A DNA stretch of 64,000 bases from Zetaproteobacteria bacterium (lineage in GTDB: Bacteria > Pseudomonadota > Zetaproteobacteria > Mariprofundales > Mariprofundaceae), in NCBI GenBank assembly GCA_002753275.1, contig PEAA01000005.1, forward strand, positions 493 through 64,492, in the 5' to 3' direction. Shown piece after piece: positions 1 through 15,227 of this stretch (position 1 is its first letter; each line of letters begins with the position of its first letter). A program made the position numbers and the translations under genes. The notes below the pieces were generated by a model. The model saw only the letters and a list, made by a program, of their open reading frames with translations, ran no database searches and had not been told where the DNA came from.

Positions 1-2074
1 TCGCTATCTAAGAATATTGTTTATCTTAATCGCCGGAATGATTTCATTGCGTTATATTTTTTGGCGAACGACCCATTCATTGCCTATGCAGGGGGATTTG
101 CCGTCCATTATCGGTGGCTTTGTTCTTTATTTTGCTGAGGTTCAAGCTGTGATTTTGTTTTTGCTTGGTATGTTTCTGTATGTTTATCCGCGTCAGCGGG
201 ATCCAATACCTTTGCCGAAAGATGGATCTTTGGAAGCGCCGACCGTTGATGTTTTTGTGCCAACCTATAATGAGCCAACTGCACTATTGCGAACCACGCT
301 GCTGGCAGTGGGTAATATCCGTTATCCTGCTGATAAAATGAATGTTTACCTTCTAGATGATGGGGGGACAGTTCAGAAACGGACGCAGTCCAATCTCCAT
401 GCTGCTCAGATTGCCCTTCATCGTCATGAGGAGTTGCAAGCGTTGTGTGCTGAGCTCGGGGTTAATTATTTAACCCGTGAGCGCAATGAAGAGGCTAAGG
501 CAGGGAATGTAAATTCAGCGTTGCGACAGACGCATGGAGAATTGATTCTTATTTTGGATTGTGACCATGTTCCAACAGTTGATTTTTTAGAGAATACCGT
601 GGTTCCATTTACTAGAGATGAGAAAGTGTATTTGGTTCAGACGCCTCATTTTTTAGTCAATGATGATGCGATTGAGCGAAATGTTGGTCGTCCAGAGAAT
701 ATGCCAAGTGAAGCAGAAATGTTTTATACCTCGACAATGCGTGGTCTTGATAACTGGGATGCTGCTTTTTTCTGTGGTTCTGGTGGCGTTTTGCGTCGTT
801 CAGCCCTGGAGGAGATTGGTGGTATCAGTACGGATACGGTGACAGAGGATATCGATACATCAGTTGAGCTTGCAAGTCGTGGCTATAAGAGTATTTACTA
901 TCATTTGCCTATGCTTGCGGGTCTCCAACCTGAGACGATTGCCGGTTTTATGACGCAGCGTCTTCGTTGGGCACATGGGATGTTGCAAGTTTTGTTGTTA
1001 AAACGCCCGCTTATTAAGCGTGGATTGGGTTTTTGGCAGCGTTTTGCGTTCTTTAATATGACATTCTACTGGATGTTTTCATTGATGCGTCTGGCCTTTC
1101 TTTTGGCTCCCGTTGCGTATTTATGTTTTGGTATCGGGCTTTACGCAGCACCTCCATCAGAAATTCTTATTTATGCGATGCCCAACCTGATTGCATTTAT
1201 GCTCTATTTTAATGTGATGTTTGGGCGGCAGCGGTGGTTTTTAACATCGGAAGTGTACGAGGTGTTACAGGCACTGTTTAATCTTCGAACGGTTCTGGCG
1301 GTGTTCTTAAATCCACGGCAAGGAAGTTTTAATGTGACGCCAAAGGATGAGAATATCGATAAAGATTTTGTGACGCCTCTAGCTAAACCTATCTATCTTC
1401 TTTTTGGTCTAATGTGCTGGGCAATGTATGAAGGATTTGTCAAGTTCTTGGATTTTGATTCTCCATTTTGGTCAATGGATGTGGCAGCATTTTGTTGGTG
1501 CATTTTGAGTTTTATGCTTGTGATTGGGGCAATGAGTCCATTACATGAGCGTAAACAGCGTCGTTATGCGCCGCGTTTTAAGGTGGATGTTGATGCAGGA
1601 ATTAATGGTATCCGAGGCCAAAGTGTTTTAGCTAAAATTGTTGATATGAGTGCACATGGCTTGCGGGTGAAGATCCAAGGTTCTGATAGTGCGATGGTCG
1701 CAGATAAGTATGTGATGGAGCTGTTTTGTCAGCCATTGAATAAACAGATTAAAATACATGTTGATGTGATAGGTCGAGATGTTGATGTGATTCATGATCA
1801 AGTCGTTTTGCGTTGTCACCATTCGCCGCTTTCTGTACAGGAAGAGCGTGATTTTATTGGTCTAGCTTATGGTGATAGCGAGCGGTGGCGAAAAGTCTTA
1901 ATTAACCGTAATAAAAGTTTTGGATTTTGGTCGGGCTTGGTCTTTTTCTTTACCAAAAATCTACCAGGTGGTATTGCACATCTTGTGTTCGAATTGAAAG
2001 AAAGTTCAGTTTGGGTTGTGAAATCATTGAGTTCGTTGTTTTTAAAAAAGGGGAAAGCTAATGAAACAATTTAG
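1..2074 (+). CDS. bcsA: Cellulose synthase catalytic subunit BcsA, 5'-partial, GT2 domain plus C-terminal PilZ c-di-GMP receptor
   Basis: The reading frame is open to nt 2, so the gene starts upstream of the window. GT2/BcsA motifs are present: LILDCDHVP, TEDIDTS and QRLRWAHG (QxxRW). PilZ motifs are present: RKQRR (RxxxR) and DMSAHGLRV (DxSxxG). There are multiple TM helices. The stop overlaps bcsB by 14 nt. Confidence 0.93.
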   Translation, partial: RYLRILFILIAGMISLRYIFWRTTHSLPMQGDLPSIIGGFVLYFAEVQAVILFLLGMFLYVYPRQRDPIPLPKDGSLEAPTVDVFVPTYNEPTALLRTTLLAVGNIRYPADKMNVYLLDDGGTVQKRTQSNLHAAQIALHRHEELQALCAELGVNYLTRERNEEAKAGNVNSALRQTHGELILILDCDHVPTVDFLENTVVPFTRDEKVYLVQTPHFLVNDDAIERNVGRPENMPSEAEMFYTSTMRGLDNWDAAFFCGSGGVLRRSALEEIGGISTDTVTEDIDTSVELASRGYKSIYYHLPMLAGLQPETIAGFMTQRLRWAHGMLQVLLLKRPLIKRGLGFWQRFAFFNMTFYWMFSLMRLAFLLAPVAYLCFGIGLYAAPPSEILIYAMPNLIAFMLYFNVMFGRQRWFLTSEVYEVLQALFNLRTVLAVFLNPRQGSFNVTPKDENIDKDFVTPLAKPIYLLFGLMCWAMYEGFVKFLDFDSPFWSMDVAAFCWCILSFMLVIGAMSPLHERKQRRYAPRFKVDVDAGINGIRGQSVLAKIVDMSAHGLRVKIQGSDSAMVADKYVMELFCQPLNKQIKIHVDVIGRDVDVIHDQVVLRCHHSPLSVQEERDFIGLAYGDSERWRKVLINRNKSFGFWSGLVFFFTKNLPGGIAHLVFELKESSVWVVKSLSSLFLKKGKANETI

Positions 2075-5000
2075 TTGTTTATCAAAAACATTTTGGGCGT
2101 TGTGCTCGTTTACACTGTTATTGAATAGTGGCGTCGTTGAGGCTGTGGATTCGGTTTCAGCAGAGGCGAAGGTTGTGCAAGCGCAAGGAACAGGCAAGGC
2201 AGTTATTCCTGTTTCCAATTCGTTAATTAAAGAGCAGGCTGATTTAGAGAGAAAAGCTGAAGAGTTGACGAAGTTGATTGAAAAACAACAGGCTGAAGCA
2301 AACCTCTTGGTAAAAAAATCGTCAGCATTGAATGAAAAAATCACGAGTTTAACCCAACAGCAGCAAGAGTTGAAGATCCAAACTGATCTTCTGGTAAAAG
2401 AACAGGGCAGTTTGGCTCAGCAGGGCGAAGCCTTTTCGAAACAACAAGAAGAATCTGGTAATGTGGCAGTGCGTTTGGAAAAAGATCAAGCGGCATTAAA
2501 GGGAAAAGATGCTGCGTTGTTGCAGCAGCAATCAGACCTTCAGGTGAAAATTGATGCTTTGGTTAAATCTCAGGCTGATATTAAAGGGCAGTTGGAGCAG
2601 CTAAATAAAGAGTCTGTCAAATTGAGTGGTGGTCACGATTCTGTTGTGAAACAGCGTGATGATGCAAAGAAAAACTTAGATGCAATGACAGAACAGCTTG
2701 CGGCATTGAAGGTGCGTTCGGATGCTTTGATTAAGGAGCAAACAGCAGTTGATGCGAAAATTGCTGCCAACAAGAAAGAGCATCAAGCCCTTGTCGCTAA
2801 AAATGATGCGTTGATTGCACAGCAGGCGACTCTACAAAAGAGTGTCAAGTCATCATCAACAGGTGATGCTGTCGCACAAGCGCATGATTTCGCTGCAAAT
2901 AAAAATGCAGAAGCTCAAAAAGCATTGGCTGATGCAAAAGAAAAGCGCGCCTTAGCGACCTCTGCAGCAACTAAAGAAAATTTGGCGGCAGCCAGTGTTG
3001 CTGAAGGTGTTGCGAAACAGAAGGTTGAAGAGGCCCGTTTAGCAACAATCGCACGGCAAACAGCAGAAAAGAGTGGTGGTGCGCCAAGTGCAGGTTCTGC
3101 ACAAGATCAAGCGAAATTATCAGTACTGGCAAAATCAATTAGTGATACGAAAGAACAGATTGTTGCTGTTGATAAGGTGTTAGATGCATTGAATAAACAG
3201 CATGCCGAACTGACAAAGCAGCAAAATGATGTGAATCATAAATTTCAATCCTTGACGCAAGAGCATGTTCAAGCCAAAAAGCAGTATGAAGTCTCTGTGA
3301 AATCAATGGATGAAGGGCTTGCTCAACAAGAACTTTTGTCGAAGAAAGTTTCTGCATTGAATGAACAGTCTGCGTTGTTGGTGAAGCAACAAGCCACCTT
3401 GGATAAAGCAATGAAAGATTTTAACGGTCAACGCGCTGATCTTAAGAAAAGTGGTGATTTGTTGGTGAAGCAATCGGTTGATTTGCAAAAAAGCAAAGAG
3501 TCCACTGATAAACAGAATTTAGCGTATCAAAATGCATTGGCCGAACTTGTGAAAAAACAGGATGCGTTGAAAGCGAAAGTTGAATCTTCAAATATTGCAT
3601 TGAATGATGCAAAAAAAGAGTCTCAAGCATTGGTTCAAGCACAAGCGGATAATCAGAAAACGCTCGATTCACTTCTTAAAGATAAGGTTGCTGTTGATGC
3701 AGATATTCAGCGTGTCGCAATGGCAAAAGAGAAAGAGATTAAAGATCGCTTAATTGCGGAGCAGAAGGCTGAAGAGGCGAGGCTTTTGGCCATTGCGGAA
3801 AAAGAGGCTGAAGAAAAACGGTTGGCAGAAGAGAAACGCCTACGCGCAATTGAGCAACAAGCGATGCAGAGTCGAGAAATTGAGCGTGTGAAACTTGCTA
3901 AAATTAATGAAAGCAAAGCTCGTTTGGCAGCGATTCAAAAAGAGATCTCTTCATTAAGTAGTGATGTGTCGAAATTGCAAATGTTGAAAGAGAGTATGGT
4001 TTATCCTCTTTATAACTTTGTAGATAAGTCTGAAATGAAAGATATGAATATTCGGATGGCAAATGGTACAGCTCAAGCGGAAGCCGTTATTCCGGTGTCG
4101 AGCCGTATTAATATTGAGTCGATGGATATCCATGTGGAATTTACTAACTCAGTATCACTTTTTAAAGATCGTTCACAATTGCGTTTCCGCTTTAACGGTA
4201 AAGTCATTGGTCAGGTTCCTCTTGAATCTGCTTATCCAGAAGGGGGAATTGATTTAATGATCCCTGCAGATTTAATTGTAACGGGTGATAATACATTAAG
4301 TTTTGAAACCAATCTGCATACAGCGCAGGCCAATGCATCACTTTATAGTTCAGAGCTTTGGGTTGAAATTGATGCGGAAAACTCAACGGTTACATTGAAT
4401 AAGTTGAATCAAAGTATTGATACCAAATTGTCGAATCTGCCAACATTGATTTATGGTAGTCAAATTGATGGTTTTTACCCTGTCTCTATGTTGACATTGA
4501 ATAACTATCCATCAGAAACCTTAATGAATGCGGAGTCCTTGATTACACAATCATTGGCACTTTTTACCAATCATGCGCCATTGCATGTTCATTCAGGCGT
4601 CGCTAAAGCGGCTGAAGGTGTCGATCAAGGATTGGGACTGTTATCTTTAGGTTTGCCAGAACGGACCATGGATAGTGTTGTTTTGGGTACATTTGCTGAC
4701 TTTGAAAAGATTTTTGGCCAATCGTTCTTTGCGAAAGATGAAGGAAGTTTGTCTCAGTATATCGGTTTGCATCAAAATCCATTGGATTCAAGTAAGTATA
4801 TTTTGATTATTGCTGGTGATAGTGAAGAGTCGGTGTTTAAAACTGCAGGTTATTTCACGCAAATGAATGCTTCGATGGAAAATCGTAGCGTTGTTACTTT
4901 TACTAAGGGCAATGAACCTGCATTGATCAAAAAAGATAATGCCAATTCATTGGGTGTTCAGCCAAAAATGCGCTATACATTCTCACAGCTAGGTTTTAAA

Positions 5001-6197
5001 ACGACCGTGCTGCAAGATGTTAATGATGGCGTTGATTTGAATGTTAAAATGCCAGCGGATTTGTTCGCAGTTGTTGATGATGATATTGAATTGATCATGC
5101 ACTTTACCTACGCCTCCGGTCTTGGCTCCGGTTCGATGGTTTCACTTCTTCTCAACGGTGAATTTCAATATTCGATTCCACTGAGCGATCCTGATGGTGT
5201 GAATGTTTCAGATTGGCGTATCAACATTCCATTGCGTGCTTTTAAACGCGGTGAAAATGTGATTCGTTTCCAAGGTCATATTGTTCCAGGTGAATCGGCG
5301 AAAGAGCATCAGCATATGGTGGATGCAATTCAAGTGACACTGTTTGATGATTGTGTGATTCGTGTTCCAAATATGAGCCACTATGCCCGTTTGCCTGATC
5401 TGAAATTGTTTGAAGGTGCAGGTTTCCCGTATGTTGAAAATAAAAACGAGAGTAGTTCATCGATTTATTTGCCCAATAAAAACTTTGATGATCTCTCGTC
5501 GGCGTTAACGATTGCAGGGAAAATGGCTCAGGTTCAAGGTCGTACAATTGACTCTGTTTTGCTCACTCATACGCTGAATAAAAGTGAAATGAAGAGTGTT
5601 ATCTATGTTGCAGATCGTGCAACGGTTGCACAAGATATTTGGCAGGCGTCACCGATTAGCAATAAAGATAACTTATTATGGATGCCAATGTCTGATGCTT
5701 TTAGCTTTTCAGGTGTTCCTCACAATGGACTGACCTCTTTTGTGGCTTTTGATCAGATTATTGAATCATTCACACGCATGGCGCAAGCACCTGTGATTCA
5801 GAAAGTGAATGTGGATAAACGCGGTTTGATTACCCAGTTTGAGTCACCGTATCATAAAGAGGCGAGTGTGACGCTGGTTACATCTGAAACACCACAATCC
5901 TTGCGTGAAGCTGTTTATACATTGGTCAATCAAGATGTTTGGTGCCAATTGAGTAAAGATACCTTGTTGTGGTCAATTGCAGATGACTATTCAAAGGTAG
6001 AGAATGTTGATGTGGTCAGCTTGAAGATCTCTGATGAGTATCATACAGGTAAGCTTTCATTCTTGGGGCGTGTAGCATATTTCTCAATTACTTACCCATT
6101 CTATCTCTTGGCAGTGTTGATGCTTGGCACAGTATTGTTTGCATGGTTCACCCGTGTGTTGTTGCAACGCCATAGAATTTTCCACAGCGGTAATTGA
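2061..6197 (+). CDS. bcsB: BcsB-like periplasmic cellulose synthase subunit with a long N-terminal coiled-coil extension (1378 aa)
   Basis: It overlaps the bcsA stop by 14 nt, the canonical bcsB position. It has an N-terminal signal peptide (cleavage around VEA/VD). Residues ~640-1378 are BcsB-sized and end in a single C-terminal TM anchor (YLLAVLMLGTVLFAWF). Residues ~54-640 are heptad-rich Q/K/A/L/E sequence. The BcsB domain call rests on position, size and topology and was not confirmed by a profile search. Confidence 0.75.
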   Translation: MKQFSCLSKTFWALCSFTLLLNSGVVEAVDSVSAEAKVVQAQGTGKAVIPVSNSLIKEQADLERKAEELTKLIEKQQAEANLLVKKSSALNEKITSLTQQQQELKIQTDLLVKEQGSLAQQGEAFSKQQEESGNVAVRLEKDQAALKGKDAALLQQQSDLQVKIDALVKSQADIKGQLEQLNKESVKLSGGHDSVVKQRDDAKKNLDAMTEQLAALKVRSDALIKEQTAVDAKIAANKKEHQALVAKNDALIAQQATLQKSVKSSSTGDAVAQAHDFAANKNAEAQKALADAKEKRALATSAATKENLAAASVAEGVAKQKVEEARLATIARQTAEKSGGAPSAGSAQDQAKLSVLAKSISDTKEQIVAVDKVLDALNKQHAELTKQQNDVNHKFQSLTQEHVQAKKQYEVSVKSMDEGLAQQELLSKKVSALNEQSALLVKQQATLDKAMKDFNGQRADLKKSGDLLVKQSVDLQKSKESTDKQNLAYQNALAELVKKQDALKAKVESSNIALNDAKKESQALVQAQADNQKTLDSLLKDKVAVDADIQRVAMAKEKEIKDRLIAEQKAEEARLLAIAEKEAEEKRLAEEKRLRAIEQQAMQSREIERVKLAKINESKARLAAIQKEISSLSSDVSKLQMLKESMVYPLYNFVDKSEMKDMNIRMANGTAQAEAVIPVSSRINIESMDIHVEFTNSVSLFKDRSQLRFRFNGKVIGQVPLESAYPEGGIDLMIPADLIVTGDNTLSFETNLHTAQANASLYSSELWVEIDAENSTVTLNKLNQSIDTKLSNLPTLIYGSQIDGFYPVSMLTLNNYPSETLMNAESLITQSLALFTNHAPLHVHSGVAKAAEGVDQGLGLLSLGLPERTMDSVVLGTFADFEKIFGQSFFAKDEGSLSQYIGLHQNPLDSSKYILIIAGDSEESVFKTAGYFTQMNASMENRSVVTFTKGNEPALIKKDNANSLGVQPKMRYTFSQLGFKTTVLQDVNDGVDLNVKMPADLFAVVDDDIELIMHFTYASGLGSGSMVSLLLNGEFQYSIPLSDPDGVNVSDWRINIPLRAFKRGENVIRFQGHIVPGESAKEHQHMVDAIQVTLFDDCVIRVPNMSHYARLPDLKLFEGAGFPYVENKNESSSSIYLPNKNFDDLSSALTIAGKMAQVQGRTIDSVLLTHTLNKSEMKSVIYVADRATVAQDIWQASPISNKDNLLWMPMSDAFSFSGVPHNGLTSFVAFDQIIESFTRMAQAPVIQKVNVDKRGLITQFESPYHKEASVTLVTSETPQSLREAVYTLVNQDVWCQLSKDTLLWSIADDYSKVENVDVVSLKISDEYHTGKLSFLGRVAYFSITYPFYLLAVLMLGTVLFAWFTRVLLQRHRIFHSGN
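2220..3710 (+). repeat. Two arrays of in-register 28-residue (84-nt) coiled-coil repeats inside bcsB (aa 54-277 and aa 355-550)
   Basis: Cutting aa 54-277 into 28-aa blocks gives these heads: SLIKEQ, LLVKKS, LLVKEQ, RLEKDQ, ALVKSQ, SVVKQR, ALIKEQ, ALIAQQ. Cutting aa 355-550 gives VLAKSI, ELTKQQ, VSVKSM, LLVKQQ, LLVKQS, ELVKKQ, ALVQAQ. The repeats are degenerate at the nucleotide level and conserved in the motif phase. Confidence 0.8.
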
Positions 6198-6203
6198 TAT
6201 CGC

Positions 6204-7250
6204 ATGAGACAAGGCTGTTTTGTCATTCATTGGAAAATTTGTCTTGTTTTGTTGGTCGCATCACTACTGGCTGCTTGTAGTGATGCGGAACGACCTGATC
6301 TTTGGAGTAAATATAAGCAACGCTTTTTGCAGCAAGATGGATCCATTGTCGATATTTCAAATGGAAGCATCCGACATTCGGAAGGGCAGGGAACAGGATT
6401 GCTCCTTGCCGTCGCCAACAATGATAAAGAATCGTTCGATCTCATTTGGAAATGGACGCAATCTAATTTACAACTACAGAGTGATAACAAACTCTTTGCT
6501 TGGAAATGGCAACCTCAATCGCCACATGTTTCTGATCTGAATAACGCCACGGATGGTGATATTTTAATTGCATGGGCGCTGCTACGCGCGTCCGAAAAGT
6601 GGAATCTTCCTACTTATAAGCAACAAGCCTTGATGATTCTTAATGATATTGAACGCTTGTTGGTTTACTCCTATCAAGGGAACTTGTTGCTGCTTCCAGG
6701 TCAGTATGGTTTTAAACATGAAGATGGCATTGTTATCAATCTTTCCTATTGGATTTTTCCTGCATTGAGACATTTTTCTAAAATCCAACCCAATAAACCC
6801 ATTTGGAACGATTTGATTCAAAGCGGTCAACAATTGATGGAAGATGGACATTTTGGTCCATGGAATATGCCAGCTGATTGGTTGATGGTGGGAGAGCATT
6901 TGATGTTGAGGAAGAATGTCCCACAACATTTTGGTTTAGATGCAGTGAGAATCCCTCTTTATCTTATTTGGGGCGGCTATTCATCACATATCGCTGTCAA
7001 ACGGGTCTCTCATTTTTGGGATTCGTTTACTGGCGTTGGTGCTTTCCCTGATTGGTTATCTCTTGAAGATACAGTTGTGCATATGGCGGGTTCGGCGGAA
7101 GGTGTTATTGCAATTGCTCATTTTGCACATGCAATGACTCAAAATGAATCAACATACACAACTCTTGATATCAATTGGCAGGAAATTGAGTATTATCAGG
7201 CCTCATTGGCACTATTGAGCGCTTTAGCTTGGGAGGATGTTCATCCATGA
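6204..7250 (+). CDS. bcsZ: Endo-1,4-beta-glucanase, glycoside hydrolase family 8 (BcsZ), predicted lipoprotein
   Basis: ATDGDILIAWALLRASEKW matches the GH8 signature A-[ST]-D-[AG]-D-x2-[IM]-A-x-[SA]-... The catalytic-Glu context SEGQGTG is present. There is a lipobox LLAAC after a hydrophobic leader. It sits between bcsB and bcsC. Confidence 0.9.
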   Translation: MRQGCFVIHWKICLVLLVASLLAACSDAERPDLWSKYKQRFLQQDGSIVDISNGSIRHSEGQGTGLLLAVANNDKESFDLIWKWTQSNLQLQSDNKLFAWKWQPQSPHVSDLNNATDGDILIAWALLRASEKWNLPTYKQQALMILNDIERLLVYSYQGNLLLLPGQYGFKHEDGIVINLSYWIFPALRHFSKIQPNKPIWNDLIQSGQQLMEDGHFGPWNMPADWLMVGEHLMLRKNVPQHFGLDAVRIPLYLIWGGYSSHIAVKRVSHFWDSFTGVGAFPDWLSLEDTVVHMAGSAEGVIAIAHFAHAMTQNESTYTTLDINWQEIEYYQASLALLSALAWEDVHP

Positions 7251-10018
7251 ATATCAGTAAAATCAAAACGATACCACTTCTTATGGTCGCTATTTTTTCA
7301 TTTGTAATTCAGCCGTCGATGCTGATTGCAGCGACATTTACAATATCAGATCGAGAACCAATTGAGTTTGCGAACGCTGATCTTACCGTGACTCATAAGA
7401 AGCGTGATTCTGTGAATAAAGTTGTTCGTAAAAAACAGCGCGAAATGGATGTGATGCGGAAAAATGAACTTGAGTCTTCGATGAAAATTGAAGGTGCTGC
7501 TAAAGGTCCTGCCGTCGTTGAGTCATCAGGCCAGGTCGTCAATGATGAAACAACTGTTACCCAAGTGGAAGATAATAGCGTTGAACAGATTATGGTCGGT
7601 GGTGTGCATGTCAGTGTTACCCGCCGTAAACCTGCCCCAAGTTTAGAAGAGCGACTTTGGAAGATGTACTCTGAAGGTAAGCTGACAGAGATTGAGCAGA
7701 CTATTGCCGCACAGCAGTCAAAAGATGTTAAATGGTCTCCTCCTAAAGAGCTTATTGGTTTGCTGGTTTTGCTTCGAGCGGATAAAAAGCTGCTTGCAGC
7801 ACAAGAGAAGGGCGATTATCAACTCGCCTTGGATATGTATAGTAAAAACCCAGCATCTTTTGGATGTGATCGTATTGGTTGGGCTTTTTTCTTGGCCGAA
7901 GCGCAGGTTCGTGCAAAACAGCCACAACTTGCACTTGGAACTTACCAACGCTTGTTAAAAACTTGTAACGATGATGCAAAAATGGCTTCACTTGAGCATA
8001 GTCAAGGTATTATTACCTCTGATAAGTGGCAACCGATGGTTTTAGGTCAATTGGGTGGCTCTTATAAAGGTGATAACCGCGAGAGGCTTGATAAACTCTA
8101 TTATAAAGTTTTATTGCAGAAAATTCAGGAAGCTTCTGATTATAAGCGTTACAAAGAGGCGCATGAGTTGGGTCTTAAACTTCAGCCGATGGTTTATAAG
8201 TATGATGATACATTGGCGGCTGAAATTATTGGTTGGTCCTTCTTTCGTGGCAAATATTTTGAAAATGGCTTAGAGAATTTTGATTATGCATTCAAGAAAA
8301 CCCATAGTCCTGATGCATTGCGCGGTAAAGTATTCTGTTTGGGTGAAACTGGTCGTTACGATGAACTCGACGAAACAGTCGAAGAGAATAAAACCATGTT
8401 AACCAAAGAGGGTGTTGTTAAAGATGTGTTGCCGATGATGGTTGGGAATGCATTGACCAAGAAAAATCACATTCGTGCATTGGCACTTCTTGATGAATTA
8501 GAAGCGATTCGACCACTTACCATGTCTGAACTGTCGATGCGTGGCTGGGCCTATTACCACTATGAAAAATTTGATTTGGCGGCTAAGCAGTTTCAGGACC
8601 TTTATGAGTTAAAACCTGACCGTGAAGTGGCGAAGGGGTGGTATTATGCACTTACGCGTGGGGGAAATAATACTGAGATTAAGCGTTTGGTGAACGAACT
8701 GGGTGATCCTTTCCGTTCATTTGTTCATCAAGAAGAGTCCAGCCAAGGAATGGCTTCCAATGCGCTTGGTGGGGTTTCTACCGATGTGCTTGCCAGTGTT
8801 GAGGAGCCTTTTGTTCGTTATGCATTTTTAACGAAGTTGCATAATGGGCAAGGTGCACCAACGATGTTTTCACGCATGGTATTAAGAAAACACATGCTTG
8901 AAGGCAATACTTCGGAAGGAAACCATGAATTCAACATTAAGTATGAACGGGTAACTATTGATGCTGGTAATGGTTTCATTGCTATTGATCCATTTCTTAA
9001 TCCTGTCCCTGCTGGGGTTGCACCAGGATTTACTGTAGGTACGATGCAGACAGTTCCTGGTCAGTTAAATTATGCTATTCCTAATATTCAAACTAAATAT
9101 TATGGCACAGAATGGTCGATAGGTTATGGATACCATGGAGATGGAACCTTGTATGGTGAATTGGGGCAAGTATTGATTCCATCGGCAATTAATGATGAAT
9201 GGAAGTGGCGTGTGGGTTATGCACGGGCATTTGATAAAGATTCTTGGCAATTTGAATTTTATCGTCAGCCACTGCGAGATACATTGATCTCATATATGGG
9301 TACGACCGATCCTTATTTGGGTATTCAAAAGTGGGGGCAAGTCCAGAGAAAGGGCATAAGTGTTGCTTATACGCGTAGCATGTCTCACAAAATGACTTTT
9401 GGTGGTAATTTTGCTACTGAGATGCGTACGGGACATAATGTAAGTGCTAATCGTAATATGGCGGCTTATGCGAGTTTGACCCGTGATATTAGTCCGCGTG
9501 GTTTCTCCTATTTTGCGGTTGGCCCTTATGGTCGTTGGCAGCAGGCGAAGATGAATCAGAATCATTACACCGTCGGTCATGGTAACTACTATAGCCCACA
9601 ACGACTGTTGGATTGGGGATTAGCCTCTTCATTTATGACGGATACCGGTAAAACATGGTTAATGCAAGCGGATGTTTCTTTGGGTAAACAGAGTGTTTGG
9701 GAAGGTTCTTCTCCTCTTTTTCCAACGGGTCTTCCACCTGTAGCTGGTATTCCAACAATTTACCCATCTTCAGCGAATCATGAGTATCATTTCTCATTCC
9801 AGGTGGCCGGTGTTTATGCCTTGACGGAACGGTGGCGTATCAGCGCTGAATATAAAAACTCGCGCGTGAAGTCTACATCTAAGGATCCGGCTAAGGCAGC
9901 ATTGGTTCCGATGCAAGAACACGCTTTTATGTTTAGTGCGACTTATCACTTTGATGATCGTGGTGAGTTCTTAACCCGTGGTGATTTCCCAGCGTTTAGA
10001 CTTAATCCGCTCTATTAG
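7247..10018 (+). CDS. bcsC: Cellulose synthase operon protein C (BcsC), TPR-like periplasmic region plus C-terminal outer-membrane beta-barrel
   Basis: The ATG at 7247 forms an ATGA overlap with the bcsZ stop and follows GGGAGGA by ~10 nt. The tracked ORF starts at a TTG at 7229. It has a signal peptide (LLMVAIFSFVIQPSMLIAA), a helical-repeat middle region, and an aromatic/Gly-rich C-terminal half ending in ...FRLNPLY. At ~923 aa it is shorter than E. coli BcsC. Confidence 0.8.
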   Translation: MNISKIKTIPLLMVAIFSFVIQPSMLIAATFTISDREPIEFANADLTVTHKKRDSVNKVVRKKQREMDVMRKNELESSMKIEGAAKGPAVVESSGQVVNDETTVTQVEDNSVEQIMVGGVHVSVTRRKPAPSLEERLWKMYSEGKLTEIEQTIAAQQSKDVKWSPPKELIGLLVLLRADKKLLAAQEKGDYQLALDMYSKNPASFGCDRIGWAFFLAEAQVRAKQPQLALGTYQRLLKTCNDDAKMASLEHSQGIITSDKWQPMVLGQLGGSYKGDNRERLDKLYYKVLLQKIQEASDYKRYKEAHELGLKLQPMVYKYDDTLAAEIIGWSFFRGKYFENGLENFDYAFKKTHSPDALRGKVFCLGETGRYDELDETVEENKTMLTKEGVVKDVLPMMVGNALTKKNHIRALALLDELEAIRPLTMSELSMRGWAYYHYEKFDLAAKQFQDLYELKPDREVAKGWYYALTRGGNNTEIKRLVNELGDPFRSFVHQEESSQGMASNALGGVSTDVLASVEEPFVRYAFLTKLHNGQGAPTMFSRMVLRKHMLEGNTSEGNHEFNIKYERVTIDAGNGFIAIDPFLNPVPAGVAPGFTVGTMQTVPGQLNYAIPNIQTKYYGTEWSIGYGYHGDGTLYGELGQVLIPSAINDEWKWRVGYARAFDKDSWQFEFYRQPLRDTLISYMGTTDPYLGIQKWGQVQRKGISVAYTRSMSHKMTFGGNFATEMRTGHNVSANRNMAAYASLTRDISPRGFSYFAVGPYGRWQQAKMNQNHYTVGHGNYYSPQRLLDWGLASSFMTDTGKTWLMQADVSLGKQSVWEGSSPLFPTGLPPVAGIPTIYPSSANHEYHFSFQVAGVYALTERWRISAEYKNSRVKSTSKDPAKAALVPMQEHAFMFSATYHFDDRGEFLTRGDFPAFRLNPLY

Positions 10019-10596: not shown

Positions 10597-12180
10597 ATGG
10601 GTGATTTTTTTGATTGTGTCATTGTGGGTTCAGGTGTTGCAGGTTCTCTTTTAGCAAGAGAATTGGCAAAGGCAGGGAAGCGTGTCTGTATGTTGGAGGC
10701 AGGGGATCGATGGGAACGATCTGATGCGCTTGAGCGTTATCATGCCAGTTGGAATCGCACGATTACTGCTCCCTATAAGCAAGGAAATTGGCTATTAACT
10801 CCTGCCGATGATCAATATTTTGCCAAGCAAGGGCACGGTGAATATTTGCCTAGCATCTTAAAGGGTGCTGGAGGAACGACATGGCATTGGACTGGTATTA
10901 CCCCGCGTTTTCTACCTACTGATTTTAAATTGCAGCAACATTATGGTGTCGGTGATAATTGGCCAATTGACTATGAGGCGTTGGAGCCCTTTTATTGTCA
11001 AGCTGAAAAAGCCTTAGGCGTCTCTGGTGATAGTAATCATGATCATGGCTCACCTCGCTCAAAAAAATATCCTATGCCTGCAATTCCGATGACCTATGGT
11101 GATAAGTTACTGGCTGAAAAACTTAAAGCTAAAGGTATTCGTATCGAATCTTTACCTGCTGCGCGTAACAGTATTGATTATGATGGAAGGCCTGCATGTC
11201 GAGGTAACAATACTTGCACCCCTATTTGCCCTATTGGTGCATCGTATAGCGCAGATGTTGATGTGGACAAGGCAATTGCTGCCGGTGCAGTTTTAAAGTT
11301 AAAGTCGGTGGCTTATCGCCTCGACACCGACCCCAAGAGTAATAAAATTACCAAGCTTCATTATAAGAAACCGGATGGCTCTTCGCATACCATTGAAGGG
11401 GGAAGGTTTATTCTTGCCTGCAACAGCTTAGAAAACCCGCGTCTTTTATTGATGTCTAAAAATAATTTGAACCCCAATGGCATTGCAAATAGCTCTGATC
11501 TTGTCGGAAGACGATTAATGGATCATGCGATTTTTTCATTTAAATTTCGTATGTCCGAGCCATTGTATATAGGTCGGGGTCCACAGAGTGTCAGTACGAT
11601 TATGGAAGGTCGCGATGGAGACTTTCGCTCGCGGTATGCCGCTGCAAAGTTTTTTTTAGGCAATGATTTGAATGTGCATCAAGAGGCTGCCGAACTGATG
11701 AATAACGCAGCCAATTGGGTGGAGCCGTTAAAAAACTTGCGTGATATTGCCATTCATCAGGGGCAAATAGGTGCTGAAATTGAACAGCTTCCTGATAAAT
11801 CAAACCGTATCACTCTGGATATGAATCGACTGGATCCTCTGGGGCTTCCTCTTCCCTCTGTGAACTATAAACTGACAAGGTATAGCAAACAGGGATTGGA
11901 TCATTGGAAGCGGTATGTGAAGAAATTGATACGAACCCTTGATGCTTCAATTACAGGGGAGTGGGATTCACTTTCATCCCATCACCCTGCAGGAACGACT
12001 TGCATGGGGAGTCATCGAAAGTCATCCGTGGTCAATGCCAATTGTCAGAGTCATGATCATGAGAATTTATACATTGTTGGCAATAGTGTTTTTCCGACCA
12101 TGGGAACAGCCAACCCCACATTAACGATCGCAGCTTTAAGCCTTCGACTTGCAGATCATTTAATCACGGCCAGTAAATAA
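10597..12180 (+). CDS. GMC-family FAD-dependent sugar dehydrogenase catalytic subunit with Cys-rich 3Fe-4S motif
   Basis: The N-terminal FAD fold is DCVIVGSGVAGSLLARELAKAGKRVCMLEAG. The Cys-rich segment CRGNNTCTPICPIGASY resembles the Fe-S motif of FAD-glucose dehydrogenase alpha subunits. The C-terminus carries the GMC motifs HPAGTTCMG and NLYIVGNSVFPTMGTANPTLTIAA. Confidence 0.85.
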   Translation: MGDFFDCVIVGSGVAGSLLARELAKAGKRVCMLEAGDRWERSDALERYHASWNRTITAPYKQGNWLLTPADDQYFAKQGHGEYLPSILKGAGGTTWHWTGITPRFLPTDFKLQQHYGVGDNWPIDYEALEPFYCQAEKALGVSGDSNHDHGSPRSKKYPMPAIPMTYGDKLLAEKLKAKGIRIESLPAARNSIDYDGRPACRGNNTCTPICPIGASYSADVDVDKAIAAGAVLKLKSVAYRLDTDPKSNKITKLHYKKPDGSSHTIEGGRFILACNSLENPRLLLMSKNNLNPNGIANSSDLVGRRLMDHAIFSFKFRMSEPLYIGRGPQSVSTIMEGRDGDFRSRYAAAKFFLGNDLNVHQEAAELMNNAANWVEPLKNLRDIAIHQGQIGAEIEQLPDKSNRITLDMNRLDPLGLPLPSVNYKLTRYSKQGLDHWKRYVKKLIRTLDASITGEWDSLSSHHPAGTTCMGSHRKSSVVNANCQSHDHENLYIVGNSVFPTMGTANPTLTIAALSLRLADHLITASK

Positions 12181-12249: not shown

Positions 12250-14643
12250 TCAGTTAGCTAGAACGGCGTTGTTTCGTCCTCCGTTTTTTGCTTGATACAT
12301 GGCGTGGTCTGCATTCTTTGACAGTTCTGTAAAAGTGGCTCCATGGTTGGGGTAGATGGAAATTCCAATGCTGGCTGAAATATTGATGGACTCTGATTTT
12401 ATGTAAAAAGGAGATTGTAATTCTAGTAAAATTTTCTTGGCGACATTGATAGCTACAGAGGCATGATCAATGTTGGGAATAATGACAACAAACTCATCTC
12501 CTCCAATACGCCCTACAGTATCATATTGTCGTAAACAGTGTTTCATGCGCCCAGCAGTTTCGATAAGCACCATATCTCCAACAGCGTGTCCAAATTGATC
12601 ATTAACAGGTTTGAAATGGTCGAGATCAATGAACAATAAAGCAAAAGTTAACCCGGTTCTTGTGCTTCGGGAGATCTCTTTTTCTACTGTTGATGTGAAA
12701 AGAATCCGATTGGGTAGTCCTGTGAGCGAGTCATGCATCGCCAAGTGACGAATATAGTTGTCGCTTTTCTTACGCTCTGAAATATCGCGGGTTGAACCTA
12801 CAACTTCGACCTTGTTGGTTTCAATATTGCGTTGAAAATGTAAAATGATCTCCACCCAAACAGTTTGTCCATTTTTACAGTTTTGCTCAATTTCGTAAGT
12901 AAAATGTTTTTCCGATGAGAATTCATGGTTTAGAAAGCCCTTTAAATTGCGTTCAATTTCTTGAAGTAAAGATTTATAGCTTTCTGTTGTCATGGTCATG
13001 ATTAATGGTTGCGTGATAATTTCTTCGGTTGTGAACCCCGACAAAGAGATGACTGATGGGCTAATATAGGTATATTGTTCTGATTCTAAATCAACAATCC
13101 ATACCACATCCTTCATGGTTTCAGTCAATGTTTGATGGAGATTTTGGCTGTTTCTTAGGTTGGTTTCAGCAATTTTTCGTCGAGTGATATCATAGACAGT
13201 TCCAATGATGACCGGTTCTTGCTGATAGGTGCTCTTATTGGCAGTAATTTCAACCCAGATAATGTTACCATTTTTGTGAATGAGTCGGATCTCTTCATTG
13301 ATTTTTGCAGTGCTGTTTTGATGTAGTTCATTCATTTTGTTCACAATCAATTGATGATCTGCGAGATGGACAAGGTTGAAGATATTCTTGTTGAGTAGTT
13401 CTGTTGAAGCATAACCTGTTAAACTTTGTCCTGCTACATTGATTGAGATGAGCGTAGTGTCTTTTAAAATGAAAATACTTGCGGATGTATTATTGGCAAG
13501 TTGTTTGAAGTTTTCTTCACTTTCTGCAAGTGAGGTTTTTGTTTTTTCAAGGGTTAGAAAGCTATGGCGTAACCGTTTGTTAATGGATAAAATATAAATG
13601 ACGATGGCGGTAAGAATACCAATGATTAACATAGTAATAATGAGCATTTTATAAAATTTACTACGGTTCTCTAAAGTTCTGGATATGTCATAAATGAAGC
13701 CATTTAAATTGGGTGTCTCTTTTAAAATACCAATCTCTTGATAAACCTTGGCAATATGATTCCAACGGTCAGGGTGCATGTAACCAATTTCAACCATTTT
13801 AGATTGAATGAGTTTATCTTGCGCTTTTGCTTCAAATTGTAGCCGTTCGATGGTTTGATGATGATTGTATTTATTGATGATTAAATTGATCATTTCATTG
13901 GGGTGTTCTTCAGCATAACGCCATCCGCGCAAACTGGCTTCTCGGAATGCAGCAACACGCTTGGGATGATACTTCAACTCATCTTCACTGGTGAAGAGGT
14001 TATCGCCATAAAAGTCAATGCCAACGGATCGAGGTGAAAATACTTGATAAGTGAACCCTTTTTGCTGCAGTGTATAGGGTTCATTTGTAGAGTAGGCTTC
14101 ATAAAAATCTGTTTTATTTTCAATTAAATCATCAGGATTTGCTGAATAGGGTAAGATGTTAATATCCTGCGTACTTATCCCTTCACGCAGCAGATAGGCT
14201 AGTAATTCTGCGGCATGGGGTTCGATCATGACGCGTTTGTTGACGATATCATGAATGCTTCCATCACCATTTTTATCTGCAGTCAGAAAAACATAGGGTG
14301 AGTGTTGATGAATTGCAGCAAGGACAACAACAGGTTTTCCAGCGATGCGATCCAACACCAGTGATGAAGAGCCAGTTGCATATTGAACCTTTCCACTGAC
14401 GACATCACGCACGATGTTTGAACTTGCTAAGGATTCTAAAATAGTAACATCGAGCCCCACTTCTTTGTAAAACCCCATCTCCTTCGCTGCATAGTATCCA
14501 GCGAATTGGTATGCATGGGTCCATTTGAGTTGTAATTTTATCGGTTCAAGATTTTCAGCATGGGTTAAAGTTGTCATGCATAAGATGGTGCATAACAGTC
14601 CCATGAGGTGATTCCATAAAGGATAAAATCTCATTTTGATCAT
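12250..14643 (-). CDS. Sensor diguanylate cyclase: periplasmic NMT1/SsuA-like solute-binding domain, TM, two PAS domains, GGDEF
   Basis: It has a signal/TM segment, then LKWTHAYQFAGYYAAKEMGFYKEVGLDV (an SBP-like sensor domain), a TM helix (MLIITMLIIGILTAIVIYIL), PAS-like segments and GGDEF (RIGGDEFVV). An RxxD I-site (RQYD) lies 5 residues upstream of GGDEF. Confidence 0.85.
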   Translation of the reverse strand: MIKMRFYPLWNHLMGLLCTILCMTTLTHAENLEPIKLQLKWTHAYQFAGYYAAKEMGFYKEVGLDVTILESLASSNIVRDVVSGKVQYATGSSSLVLDRIAGKPVVVLAAIHQHSPYVFLTADKNGDGSIHDIVNKRVMIEPHAAELLAYLLREGISTQDINILPYSANPDDLIENKTDFYEAYSTNEPYTLQQKGFTYQVFSPRSVGIDFYGDNLFTSEDELKYHPKRVAAFREASLRGWRYAEEHPNEMINLIINKYNHHQTIERLQFEAKAQDKLIQSKMVEIGYMHPDRWNHIAKVYQEIGILKETPNLNGFIYDISRTLENRSKFYKMLIITMLIIGILTAIVIYILSINKRLRHSFLTLEKTKTSLAESEENFKQLANNTSASIFILKDTTLISINVAGQSLTGYASTELLNKNIFNLVHLADHQLIVNKMNELHQNSTAKINEEIRLIHKNGNIIWVEITANKSTYQQEPVIIGTVYDITRRKIAETNLRNSQNLHQTLTETMKDVVWIVDLESEQYTYISPSVISLSGFTTEEIITQPLIMTMTTESYKSLLQEIERNLKGFLNHEFSSEKHFTYEIEQNCKNGQTVWVEIILHFQRNIETNKVEVVGSTRDISERKKSDNYIRHLAMHDSLTGLPNRILFTSTVEKEISRSTRTGLTFALLFIDLDHFKPVNDQFGHAVGDMVLIETAGRMKHCLRQYDTVGRIGGDEFVVIIPNIDHASVAINVAKKILLELQSPFYIKSESINISASIGISIYPNHGATFTELSKNADHAMYQAKNGGRNNAVLAN

Positions 14644-14906: not shown

Positions 14907-14995
14907 TGGTGCCGAGGGCCGGAGTCGAACCGGCACGGAGATCACTCTCCGAGGGATTTTAAGTCCCTTGTGTCTACCTGTTTCACCACCCCGGC
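14907..14995 (-). tRNA. tRNA-Leu (anticodon TAA), long variable arm, CCA encoded
   Basis: The reverse complement reads GCCGGGGTGGTGAAACAGGTAGACACAAGGGACTTAAAATCCC...GCCGGTTCGACTCCGGCCCTCGGCACCA. The acceptor stem pairs 7/7 with one G-U. The T-loop is TTCGACT and the anticodon loop is CTTAAAA. Confidence 0.9.
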
Positions 14996-15022
14996 GGATG
15001 GGATTGATTTTTTGATGAAGTT

Positions 15023-15097
15023 TGGAGGCAGGGGCGAGAATCGAACTCGCGAATAAAGGATTTGCAGTCCTCCGCCGTACCACTGAGCCACCCTGCC
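15023..15097 (-). tRNA. tRNA-Cys (anticodon GCA)
   Basis: The reverse complement reads GGCAGGGTGGCTCAGTGGTACGGCGGAGGACTGCAAATCCTTTATTCGCGAGTTCGATTCTCGCCCCTGCCTCCA. It folds as a cloverleaf with anticodon loop CTGCAAA. Confidence 0.9.
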
Positions 15098-15151
15098 ATG
15101 AACTTCTCATAAAATAAAAGAGGGGAATCAAATGATCCCCCTCCGAGTGCT

Positions 15152-15227
15152 TGGAGCGGGTAACCGGGCTCGAACCGGTGACCTCGACCTTGGCAAGGTC
15201 GCGCTCTACCAACTGAGCTATACCCGC
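15152..15227 (-). tRNA. tRNA-Gly (anticodon GCC)
   Basis: The reverse complement reads GCGGGTATAGCTCAGTTGGTAGAGCGCGACCTTGCCAAGGTCGAGGTCACCGGTTCGAGCCCGGTTACCCGCTCCA. The anticodon loop is TTGCCAA. Confidence 0.92.

Follow-up and report, generated by a model that had tools for sequence, protein, structure and literature searches.

Why should the BcsB subunit of a bacterial cellulose synthase carry some 615 additional residues between its signal peptide and its first carbohydrate-binding domain (CBD-1), and what might such an insert do in the periplasm? The question is raised by the cellulose synthesis (bcs) operon at the start of a stretch of 64,000 nucleotides (nt) of contig PEAA01000005.1, from the Zetaproteobacteria bacterium assembly GCA_002753275.1, the whole of which is referred to as the window. 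The second gene of this operon, bcsB, encodes a protein in which a predicted helical rod, composed for the greater part of 28-residue, four-heptad repeats, is placed in front of an otherwise normal BcsB domain. It represents a new architectural variant of a well-known protein, seen so far in one uncultured genome. The open reading frame (ORF) overlaps bcsA, whose stop codon lies at 2074, by 14 nt, its ATG is preceded by a Shine-Dalgarno-like GGGGAA, and the gene is also called as 1378 amino acids (aa) in the NCBI record GCA_015231855.1 (contig JADGAS010000005.1, 74.6 kb). Its parts are the following.

2061..6197 (+), bcsB ORF, 1378 aa
2061..2144 (+), Sec-type signal peptide, aa 1-28 (MKQFSCLSKTFWALCSFTLLLNSGVVEA, followed by VD), as read from the sequence
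2145..2219 (+), non-helical N-terminal segment, aa 29-53, with a predicted local distance difference test score (pLDDT) below 50 in the structural model
2220..2891 (+), repeat array 1, eight 28-residue (four-heptad) units, aa 54-277, from the repeat analyses
2892..3122 (+), Ala-rich helical segment, aa 278-354, 77 residues or 11 heptads, with a Gly/Pro break (SGGAPSAGS) at aa 338-346
3123..3710 (+), repeat array 2, seven 28-residue units of the array 1 type, aa 355-550, from the repeat analyses
3711..3989 (+), E/R/K/A-rich helix joining the rod to the BcsB domain, aa 551-643, from composition and both structural models
3990..6080 (+), BcsB periplasmic domain, aa ~644-1340, two jelly-roll carbohydrate-binding and two flavodoxin-like domains
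6087..6161 (+), C-terminal transmembrane anchor, aa ~1343-1367, from hydropathy and helical in the structural model

The C-terminal ~735 residues constitute a normal tail-anchored BcsB, with bcsA directly upstream and bcsZ-bcsC downstream of the gene. The Pfam BcsB family (PF03170) matches aa 662-1272 with E=1.4e-60 and 205.7 bits (cutoff 21) over profile positions 15-605 of 606, while NCBIfam BcsB equivalog models are matched at up to 161.6 bits, which is below their strict species-level cutoffs. A profile of this domain and its relatives matched the BcsB chains 7l2z_B, 6yg8_A and 4hg6_B of the Protein Data Bank (PDB), and an AlphaFold2 (AF2) model of aa 540-1378 (pLDDT 74; predicted template modelling score, pTM, 0.64) retrieved 7l2z_E (E=1.1e-39, template modelling score 0.62) and 4hg6_B (E=5e-27) in Foldseek, so that the four-domain BcsB fold was recovered by structure prediction and fold comparison. 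By family membership, the domain would be predicted to have the usual role of BcsB in BcsA activity and glucan guidance. It aligns with relatives of 751-753 aa from residue ~33 of the latter onwards. The sole hydrophobic segment of transmembrane grade lies at aa ~1343-1367, with a Kyte-Doolittle 19-mer peak of 2.07 at aa 1349-1367.

The signal peptide begins like that of the short relatives (MKQFS... as against MYNFSK...) and overlaps the bcsA stop codon as it does in those relatives. No second hydrophobic export signal was found ahead of the BcsB domain in the 1378-aa sequence and, since this domain lacks an export signal of its own, it follows that the rod enters the periplasm with it. The protein does not start with a lipoprotein signal, as 'WALC' does not form a lipobox and the hydrophobic core runs on past the Cys residue.

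The size of the insert is evident from the motif RSQLRFRFN, which is located at residue 89-90 in the closest relatives (751-753 aa) and at residue 704 in the window protein, 615 residues further on. The insert is composed of 16% Ala, 13% Lys, 11% Gln (10.8%), 11% Leu and 9% Glu, with only 1.0% of Phe, Tyr and Trp combined and 0.3% Pro. The repeat units account for 420 (15 x 28) of its ~615 residues, the remainder being the Ala-rich segment and the E/R/K-rich helix. Each unit is headed by the motif xL(V/I)KxQ, whose columns are conserved over the fifteen units to different degrees (column 2, Leu in 13/15; column 3, Val or Ile in 12/15; column 4, Lys in 13/15; column 6, Gln in 10/15). When the unit is mapped onto heptads, all four 'd' positions are Leu-rich, one 'a' position is the conserved Gln and one 'e' position is Val/Ile, while the 'f' positions are rich in Lys and form an outward lysine stripe.

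Heptad periodicity was apparent from each of the measures applied. BLOSUM autocorrelation over aa 54-550 gave top lags that were all multiples of seven (56, z=10.8; 42, z=7.9; 28, z=7.8; 14, z=7.3), while the BcsB domain, analysed for comparison, yielded no heptad-type signal (maximum z=2.7). In the Fourier analysis of hydrophobic residues, the period of 3.5 had a power of 27.8 and that of 7 a power of 15.0, where ~1 is expected at random. One and the same heptad register fits best along the greater part of both aa 57-260 and aa 337-540; short stretches, for example aa 113-140 and 393-406, fit a register shifted by 3-4 residues. Beyond the heptad, the 28-residue super-period is real yet modest: the mean pairwise identity of the fifteen 28-mers was 0.227, compared to 0.173 +/- 0.020 for heptad-phased random starts and 0.097 for fully random ones. 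The decisive test was cross-validation with hidden Markov models (HMMs). A model built from array 1 only recovered units of array 2 in register (aa 384, 439, 467, 496 and 523), and a model built from array 2 only recovered units of array 1 (aa 55, 82, 110, 166, 196, 222 and 252), with shuffled controls giving ~0.1 matches each. The two arrays are offset by 301 residues, which equals 43 heptads or 10 x 28 + 21, and they consequently share a heptad frame while differing in 28-residue phase.

The repeat profile revealed no further units in aa 278-354 or aa 551-643, the heptad signal being weak in the former segment, and the 28-residue repeat was found in no other ORF of the window. Charge periodicity of the myosin-rod type was absent (power at period 28 of 0.4 for positive and 0.2 for negative residues; at period 9.33, 0.4 and 2.0, respectively), and the 28-residue period resides in the head motif rather than in charge zones. 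Tandem Repeats Finder detected no arrays in the DNA, the longest exact DNA repeat being 15 nt. The repeats would, from these comparisons, be old: the DNA has diverged while the heptad frame and the head motif have been kept over ~500 residues.

An earlier note on this stretch, made from its letters alone, had described a 1378-aa ORF with a 14-nt bcsA overlap and a single C-terminal membrane anchor, and had taken residues ~640-1378 to be BcsB-sized; all of this was confirmed, the last by the Pfam and fold matches given above. The eight and seven head motifs that it quoted are present exactly as it gave them, and the heptad and 28-residue periods it proposed are borne out by the autocorrelation and the HMM cross-validation. 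Two of its statements require amendment. The ~590 residues of heptad-type helix correspond to a helical insert of ~615 residues, of which only 420 are repeat units; and the repeats keep register within each array and lie in the same heptad frame, but their 28-residue phase differs between array 1 and array 2.

The flanks of the insert offer a hint as to its origin. Within aa 29-53, the segment 'QGTGKAVIPVS' (window 2184-2219) resembles the conserved segment 'NGTAQAEAVIPVS' of the first BcsB strand (aa 669-681, window 4065-4103); the two share the DNA stretch GTTATTCCnGTnTC, and BLASTP of one against the other gave E=0.002 in a single comparison chosen post hoc. The pair looks like a duplication flanking the insert, which hints that the insert may have arisen by an internal duplication or an insertion within the start of CBD-1. 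Alternatively, the N-terminal copy may be an extra strand that can pack onto CBD-1 again.

How unusual this architecture is was assessed by an exhaustive HMMER search with aa 200-1378 as the query against 1.84 billion representative proteins, which returned 942 matches, the best 150 of which were inspected. Nearly all of these 150 proteins are 700-830 aa in length, the long exceptions among them being BcsA-BcsB fusions of 1522-1631 aa (confirmed by Pfam), partial fusions and proteins with Pro/Ala-rich disordered N-termini. None of the 150 besides the window protein is a BcsB with such a coil, in line with the remark in the earlier note that canonical BcsB has no such module. A protein possessing both the coil and the BcsB domain would have topped this ranking; a distant BcsB with an unrelated coil could escape it. 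A word-index search with the full-length protein returned no close full-length homologue, its 8000 candidates being swamped by coiled-coil words. The coil on its own matched no Pfam family at E<0.05, no PDB sequence at E<=0.01 and, in NCBIfam, only generic coiled-coil models (SMC and a Mycoplasma helix-rich protein), weakly and far below their cutoffs. Comparison with PDB folds gave no significant match either, the best matches, weak ones with E of at least 0.01, being to antiparallel bundles of helices, for example BAR domains and tektin-like proteins. Profiles for TolA, for HlyD/AcrA membrane fusion proteins and for Wzz-type proteins did not include the coil among their members, and neither the main Bcs review nor full-text literature searches yielded a coiled-coil or N-terminally extended BcsB.

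The CarB protein of the window is 100% identical to that of a Zetaproteobacteria metagenome-assembled genome (MAG) and 84% identical to the next nearest proteins of Mariprofundaceae/Ghiorsea, which makes the host, as judged by this marker, a lineage of its own within the class to which the stalk-forming iron oxidisers belong. The nearest BcsB proteins in genome and metagenome scans fall in Zetaproteobacteria (Ghiorsea, Mariprofundus and one contig binned as Alcanivoracaceae), the metagenome scan contributing a single locus, that of P0005 (see below). Zetaproteobacterial relatives exhibit 36-48% identity to the window BcsB and share the gene order bcsABZC. The closest of them (751-753 aa, 44-48% identity), from Ghiorsea and other MAGs, have no insert, their signal peptide leading to the conserved start of the domain within ~10 residues. 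Metagenome proteins of 840-878 aa (P0005-P0008) carry a low-complexity insert of ~110-130 aa, rich in A/V/K/E/P, at the same site, and Mariprofundus sp. EBB-1 (L004, 1-260, NZ_RCFQ01000050) and the AMOR MAG (L003, 1-280) have 12-residue helical 'AEAKKLAE..NA' repeats there. Both of the latter contigs end inside the repeat, so that the insert is at least 85 residues long; these two extensions are possibly large and short-read assembly fails to resolve them. The proximal E/R/K helix of the window protein is not significantly similar to the Mariprofundus A/K/E repeats (E=0.47), and the 28-residue heptad repeat is found in none of these Zetaproteobacterial relatives. From the sequences compared, the junction of signal peptide and CBD-1 is an insertion hot-spot in Zetaproteobacteria, and the window insert is by far its longest and most regular occupant.

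The suggestion of the earlier note that such a protein would be of interest in an organism extruding organised fibres applies only loosely, in that the class does include stalk formers; the published candidate stalk genes, however, form an sfz/xag-like cluster with its own BcsB-like Sfz1 and not bcsABZC (PMC8250860). The bcsABZC genes have been proposed to be responsible for 'dreads' in Ferriphaselus (PMC4643136). As a separate observation, the contig labelled as an Alcanivoracaceae MAG (L002, JAESTH010000010.1) encodes a BcsB that is 46% identical to that of the window, as is the BcsB of a Ghiorsea MAG (L001), and it has the bcsABZC-plus-dehydrogenase gene order of the window; it is either a mis-binned contig or a case of horizontal operon transfer.

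Concerning the shape of the insert, some information can be deduced from structure prediction. A single-sequence AF2 model of aa 29-660 is ~95% helical by DSSP (mean pLDDT 72, pTM 0.31), with helices at aa 53-187, 193-263, 268-337, 346-475 and 479-659 and a break at aa 338-345 of pLDDT below 50. The E/R/K helix is continuous in this model (aa 479-659) and in that of the BcsB domain (aa 545-640, there at low pLDDT). At 0.1485 nm per residue, the contour of a fully extended rod would be ~90 nm for aa 53-659 (~607 residues) and ~74 nm for the repeat region. A typical periplasm is several-fold narrower, so that the rod fits into it only if it folds back, tilts or runs along the envelope, and the length argument of the earlier note is arithmetically right. 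Three Gly/Ser/Pro-rich breaks are defined by sequence (SGGHD, aa 189-193; SSSTGD, aa 264-269; SGGAPSAGS, aa 338-346). Their arrangement has mirror symmetry around aa ~266, with distances of 75.5 residues to one side and 75.5-76 to the other, and random placement of breaks gives such symmetry with P=1.5e-4, a post hoc value that also counts the AF2-placed break at aa 476-478. The matched breaks are as would be expected in an antiparallel hairpin centred at aa ~266, and the weak fold matches to antiparallel bundles given above would also agree with folding back; another candidate for the hairpin tip is the Gly/Pro loop (aa 338-346), which lies close to the middle of the helical region as a whole. 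Sequence periodicity and model together support a long N-terminal, heptad-based helical module, whereas a supercoiled oligomer of defined strand number and orientation is a possibility, the model being that of a monomer.

The tip of E. coli BcsB that is farthest from the membrane consists of CBD-1, beside the groove where the tetratricopeptide repeat (TPR) region of BcsC docks (PMC11379886). The rod hangs from the N-terminus of CBD-1 and hence from the tip that adjoins the BcsC-docking groove in solved BcsB complexes. It is probably a passive structural element and not an enzyme. Since its contour far exceeds the periplasm and three breaks divide it into segments, its most likely arrangement would be an antiparallel bundle formed by folding back, a course along the envelope, or both. 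The Leu/Gln seam would mediate self-association of rods, and rods so associated may cluster or space neighbouring BcsA-BcsB units, or position them relative to BcsC or the cell wall. To this reading of the insert, as a non-catalytic, self-associating structural arm that clusters, spaces or positions synthase units, we would give an even chance of being correct. It is favoured by the finding that related Zetaproteobacterial BcsB proteins also carry helical or low-complexity inserts at the same site. A more ambitious version has a slim chance only: the rods may self-assemble into a periplasmic filament or lattice (a 'periskeleton') that aligns many BcsA-BcsB units along the envelope at a fixed spacing, so that glucan chains emerge in alignment and coalesce into ordered fibres. 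BcsB would then have a terminal-complex organiser built into it, in a host whose class is known to extrude structured extracellular filaments.

Several observations weigh against the structural arm. The mirror-symmetry probability, besides being post hoc, includes a break (aa 476-478) that has no Gly or Pro and was possibly placed by AF2. Mirror correlation of the hydrophobic core positions peaks every 28 residues and identifies no unique hairpin centre, and the pTM of the monomer model is 0.31. When AF2 is run on a single chain of a homo-oligomeric coiled coil, the chain tends to come out folded back on itself, and the evidence for a fold-back is therefore partly circular. The closest relatives (751-753 aa) work without an extension, which implies that the rod is not needed for basic BcsB function. 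Finally, the observation stems from one genome and one assembly, with the contig derived from one sample only.

Other explanations of the locus have to be weighed against the structural arm, beginning with the possibility that no such protein exists. A sequencing error or mis-assembly could have fused an unrelated coiled-coil gene to bcsB in what is a MAG, with the contig obtained from a single sample; a look-up gave no exact match to the window BcsB protein, and two related assemblies break in this region. The reading frame is nevertheless open across both insert junctions, the signal peptide occupies its canonical place and begins like that of the relatives, and the BcsB domain depends on this upstream signal peptide for want of its own. 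Synonymous codon usage of the coil is nearly identical to that of the BcsB domain (distance 0.078) and closer to it than to the background genes, TTG making up 53% of Leu codons in both as against 31% in other genes; because of this match, the insert appears to be native to the gene. The DNA repeats, moreover, are too diverged (at most 15 nt exact) to cause a mis-join, and we consider an artefact very improbable. If the gene is real, the insert might still be of no consequence: an 84-nt unit could have expanded by slippage or unequal recombination at an insertion-tolerant junction, yielding a linker without specific function. Such neutral expansion would accord with the relatives, which at this site have either no insert or unrelated low-complexity sequence of ~110-130 or at least 85 residues, and with the occurrence of the long coil in a single MAG. 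The DNA copies, however, are strongly diverged, yet the heptad frame has been kept over ~500 residues and the L/V/K/Q columns are conserved in 10-13 of the 15 units, a pattern that speaks for purifying selection having acted on a folded helix over a long time; it is also costly to keep and export an insert of 1.8 kb, and this explanation strikes us as distinctly unlikely.

Two further alternatives grant the rod a function other than clustering or spacing. It could be a tether that spans the envelope much as TolA domain II or the hairpin of a membrane fusion protein does; extending from the tip of BcsB as far as BcsC, the outer membrane or peptidoglycan, it would bridge or fix the gap between the synthase in the inner membrane and the pore in the outer one. 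TolA domain II is a long, A/K/E-rich helical periplasmic element, and aa 278-337 and 551-643 of the window protein are A/K/E-rich in a similar way; the outward Lys-rich stripe could contact anionic envelope polymers. The rod starts at the membrane-distal tip beside the BcsC-binding groove, as is well suited to a tether, although BcsB and BcsC already span the periplasm in E. coli (PMC11379886). Its free end (aa 29-53) has no binding domain recognisable in profile searches, no TolA, HlyD or other membrane-fusion-protein family is matched, and the contour is several-fold a typical periplasm. The window BcsC has 923-929 aa against 1157 positions in the E. coli model, a shortfall of ~230 aa that would favour a tether; BcsC is, however, short throughout the clade, at 860 aa in the Alcanivoracaceae-labelled contig (6812-9394) and 962 aa in Mariprofundus sp. 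EBB-1, which would imply a TPR region ~200-300 residues shorter with or without a BcsB coil. As the coil-less relatives possess an equally short BcsC (860 and 962 aa), the coil does not compensate for the length of BcsC, and a tether is on balance unlikely. The rod could, alternatively, guide or measure the emerging glucan, as the earlier note speculated, binding the chain and setting fibre organisation or chain length. It would be located on the cellulose exit path at the BcsB tip (PMC11379886), it is Gln-rich (10.8%), and coiled-coil rulers exist in polysaccharide synthesis, WbdD being an example (PMC8892547). In rulers of the WbdD type, the coil keeps a terminating enzyme a set distance away, and a domain of this kind is missing from the rod; its conserved Gln is located at the core 'a' position and not at the surface, and the aromatic residues of cellulose-binding faces are nearly absent (Phe, Tyr and Trp at 1.0% of the insert). 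A role as glucan guide or ruler is thus improbable.

The remainder of the operon and its surroundings conform to a cellulose synthesis locus, the relevant genes being these.

2..2074 (+), bcsA, catalytic cellulose synthase with PilZ domain, its 5' end cut by the window edge
6204..7250 (+), bcsZ, glycoside hydrolase family 8 (GH8) endoglucanase (PF01270, E=1.1e-51; NF008305)
7229..10018 (+), bcsC, outer-membrane/TPR subunit (BCSC_C, PF05420, E=8.5e-35), 923-929 aa depending on the choice of start codon and 923 aa in NCBI
12250..14643 (-), NMT1-PAS-PAS-GGDEF diguanylate cyclase (GGDEF, E=1.4e-51, plus PAS and NMT1), divergent from the bcs operon

The bcsA product scores 741 bits against TIGR03030 CelA (cutoff 699) and contains the PilZ domain PF07238; in the NCBI record it is a 756-aa product that starts near the contig end. 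The diguanylate cyclase at 12250..14643, whose NMT1-like domain is of the periplasmic binding type, is likely the local source of cyclic di-GMP for the PilZ domain of BcsA, a link that we infer. Directly after bcsC are located a small subunit of the FAD-SLDH family (PF12318, 10030-10587) and a GMC flavoprotein oxidoreductase (10597-12180). A dehydrogenase pair occurs at the matching position after bcsC of the Alcanivoracaceae-labelled contig (9394-9906 and 9903-11498), in which respect the two loci are alike, and Mariprofundus sp. EBB-1 has only a 185-aa ORF at the post-bcsC position (6286-6843). Conserved within the bcs operon, a sugar dehydrogenase might act on the glucan or on cello-oligosaccharides and convert them by oxidation to carboxylated products, for instance. 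Beside the diguanylate cyclase gene is a cluster of tRNA-Leu(TAA), tRNA-Cys(GCA) and tRNA-Gly(GCC) genes at 14907-15227 (-), which looks ordinary.

By what means synthase units take up their positions with respect to one another and to the pore in the outer membrane is still an open question in bacterial cellulose synthesis. E. coli positions its units by means of a BcsB hexamer together with BcsC, and Komagataeibacter does so by accessory proteins. If the proposed structural arm is real, a BcsB with its own rod of ~90-nm contour at the BcsC-docking tip would represent a third, previously undescribed solution. The rod is, in addition, a deletable module in one gene, and it would offer a simple handle on the control of fibre order by scaffolding in the periplasm. 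With a single MAG and no phenotype as its basis, the finding carries limited weight.

Compared to known systems, aa ~645-1378 of the window protein resemble canonical BcsB (E. coli, 6YG8/7L2Z; Rhodobacter sphaeroides, 4HG6) in Pfam family, four-domain fold and tail anchor. Canonical BcsB is ~700-830 aa in length and its signal peptide leads nearly straight into CBD-1, whereas the window BcsB has ~615 helical residues at this point. WbdD of the E. coli O9a O-antigen system is likewise a polysaccharide-assembly protein with a long coiled coil (PMC8892547); it is cytoplasmic, and its terminal kinase and methyltransferase end the chains, whereas the BcsB rod would be periplasmic and has no terminal domain. 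The N-terminal stalk of plant CesA provides a second parallel, as a coiled coil on a cellulose synthase subunit that accompanies synthase oligomerisation (PMC8892547), but it is cytosolic, short, located on the catalytic subunit and binds a microtubule linker, and it has no sequence relationship to the BcsB rod. With respect to location, the rod may be likened to the long periplasmic helical or coiled-coil spacers and filaments represented by TolA domain II, Lpp and CrvA, Lpp being a long helical periplasmic element (PMC8892547) and the CrvA polymer belonging to the periskeletal proteins (PMC8938487). Unlike these three, the rod described in this study is fused to a subunit of a polysaccharide synthase.

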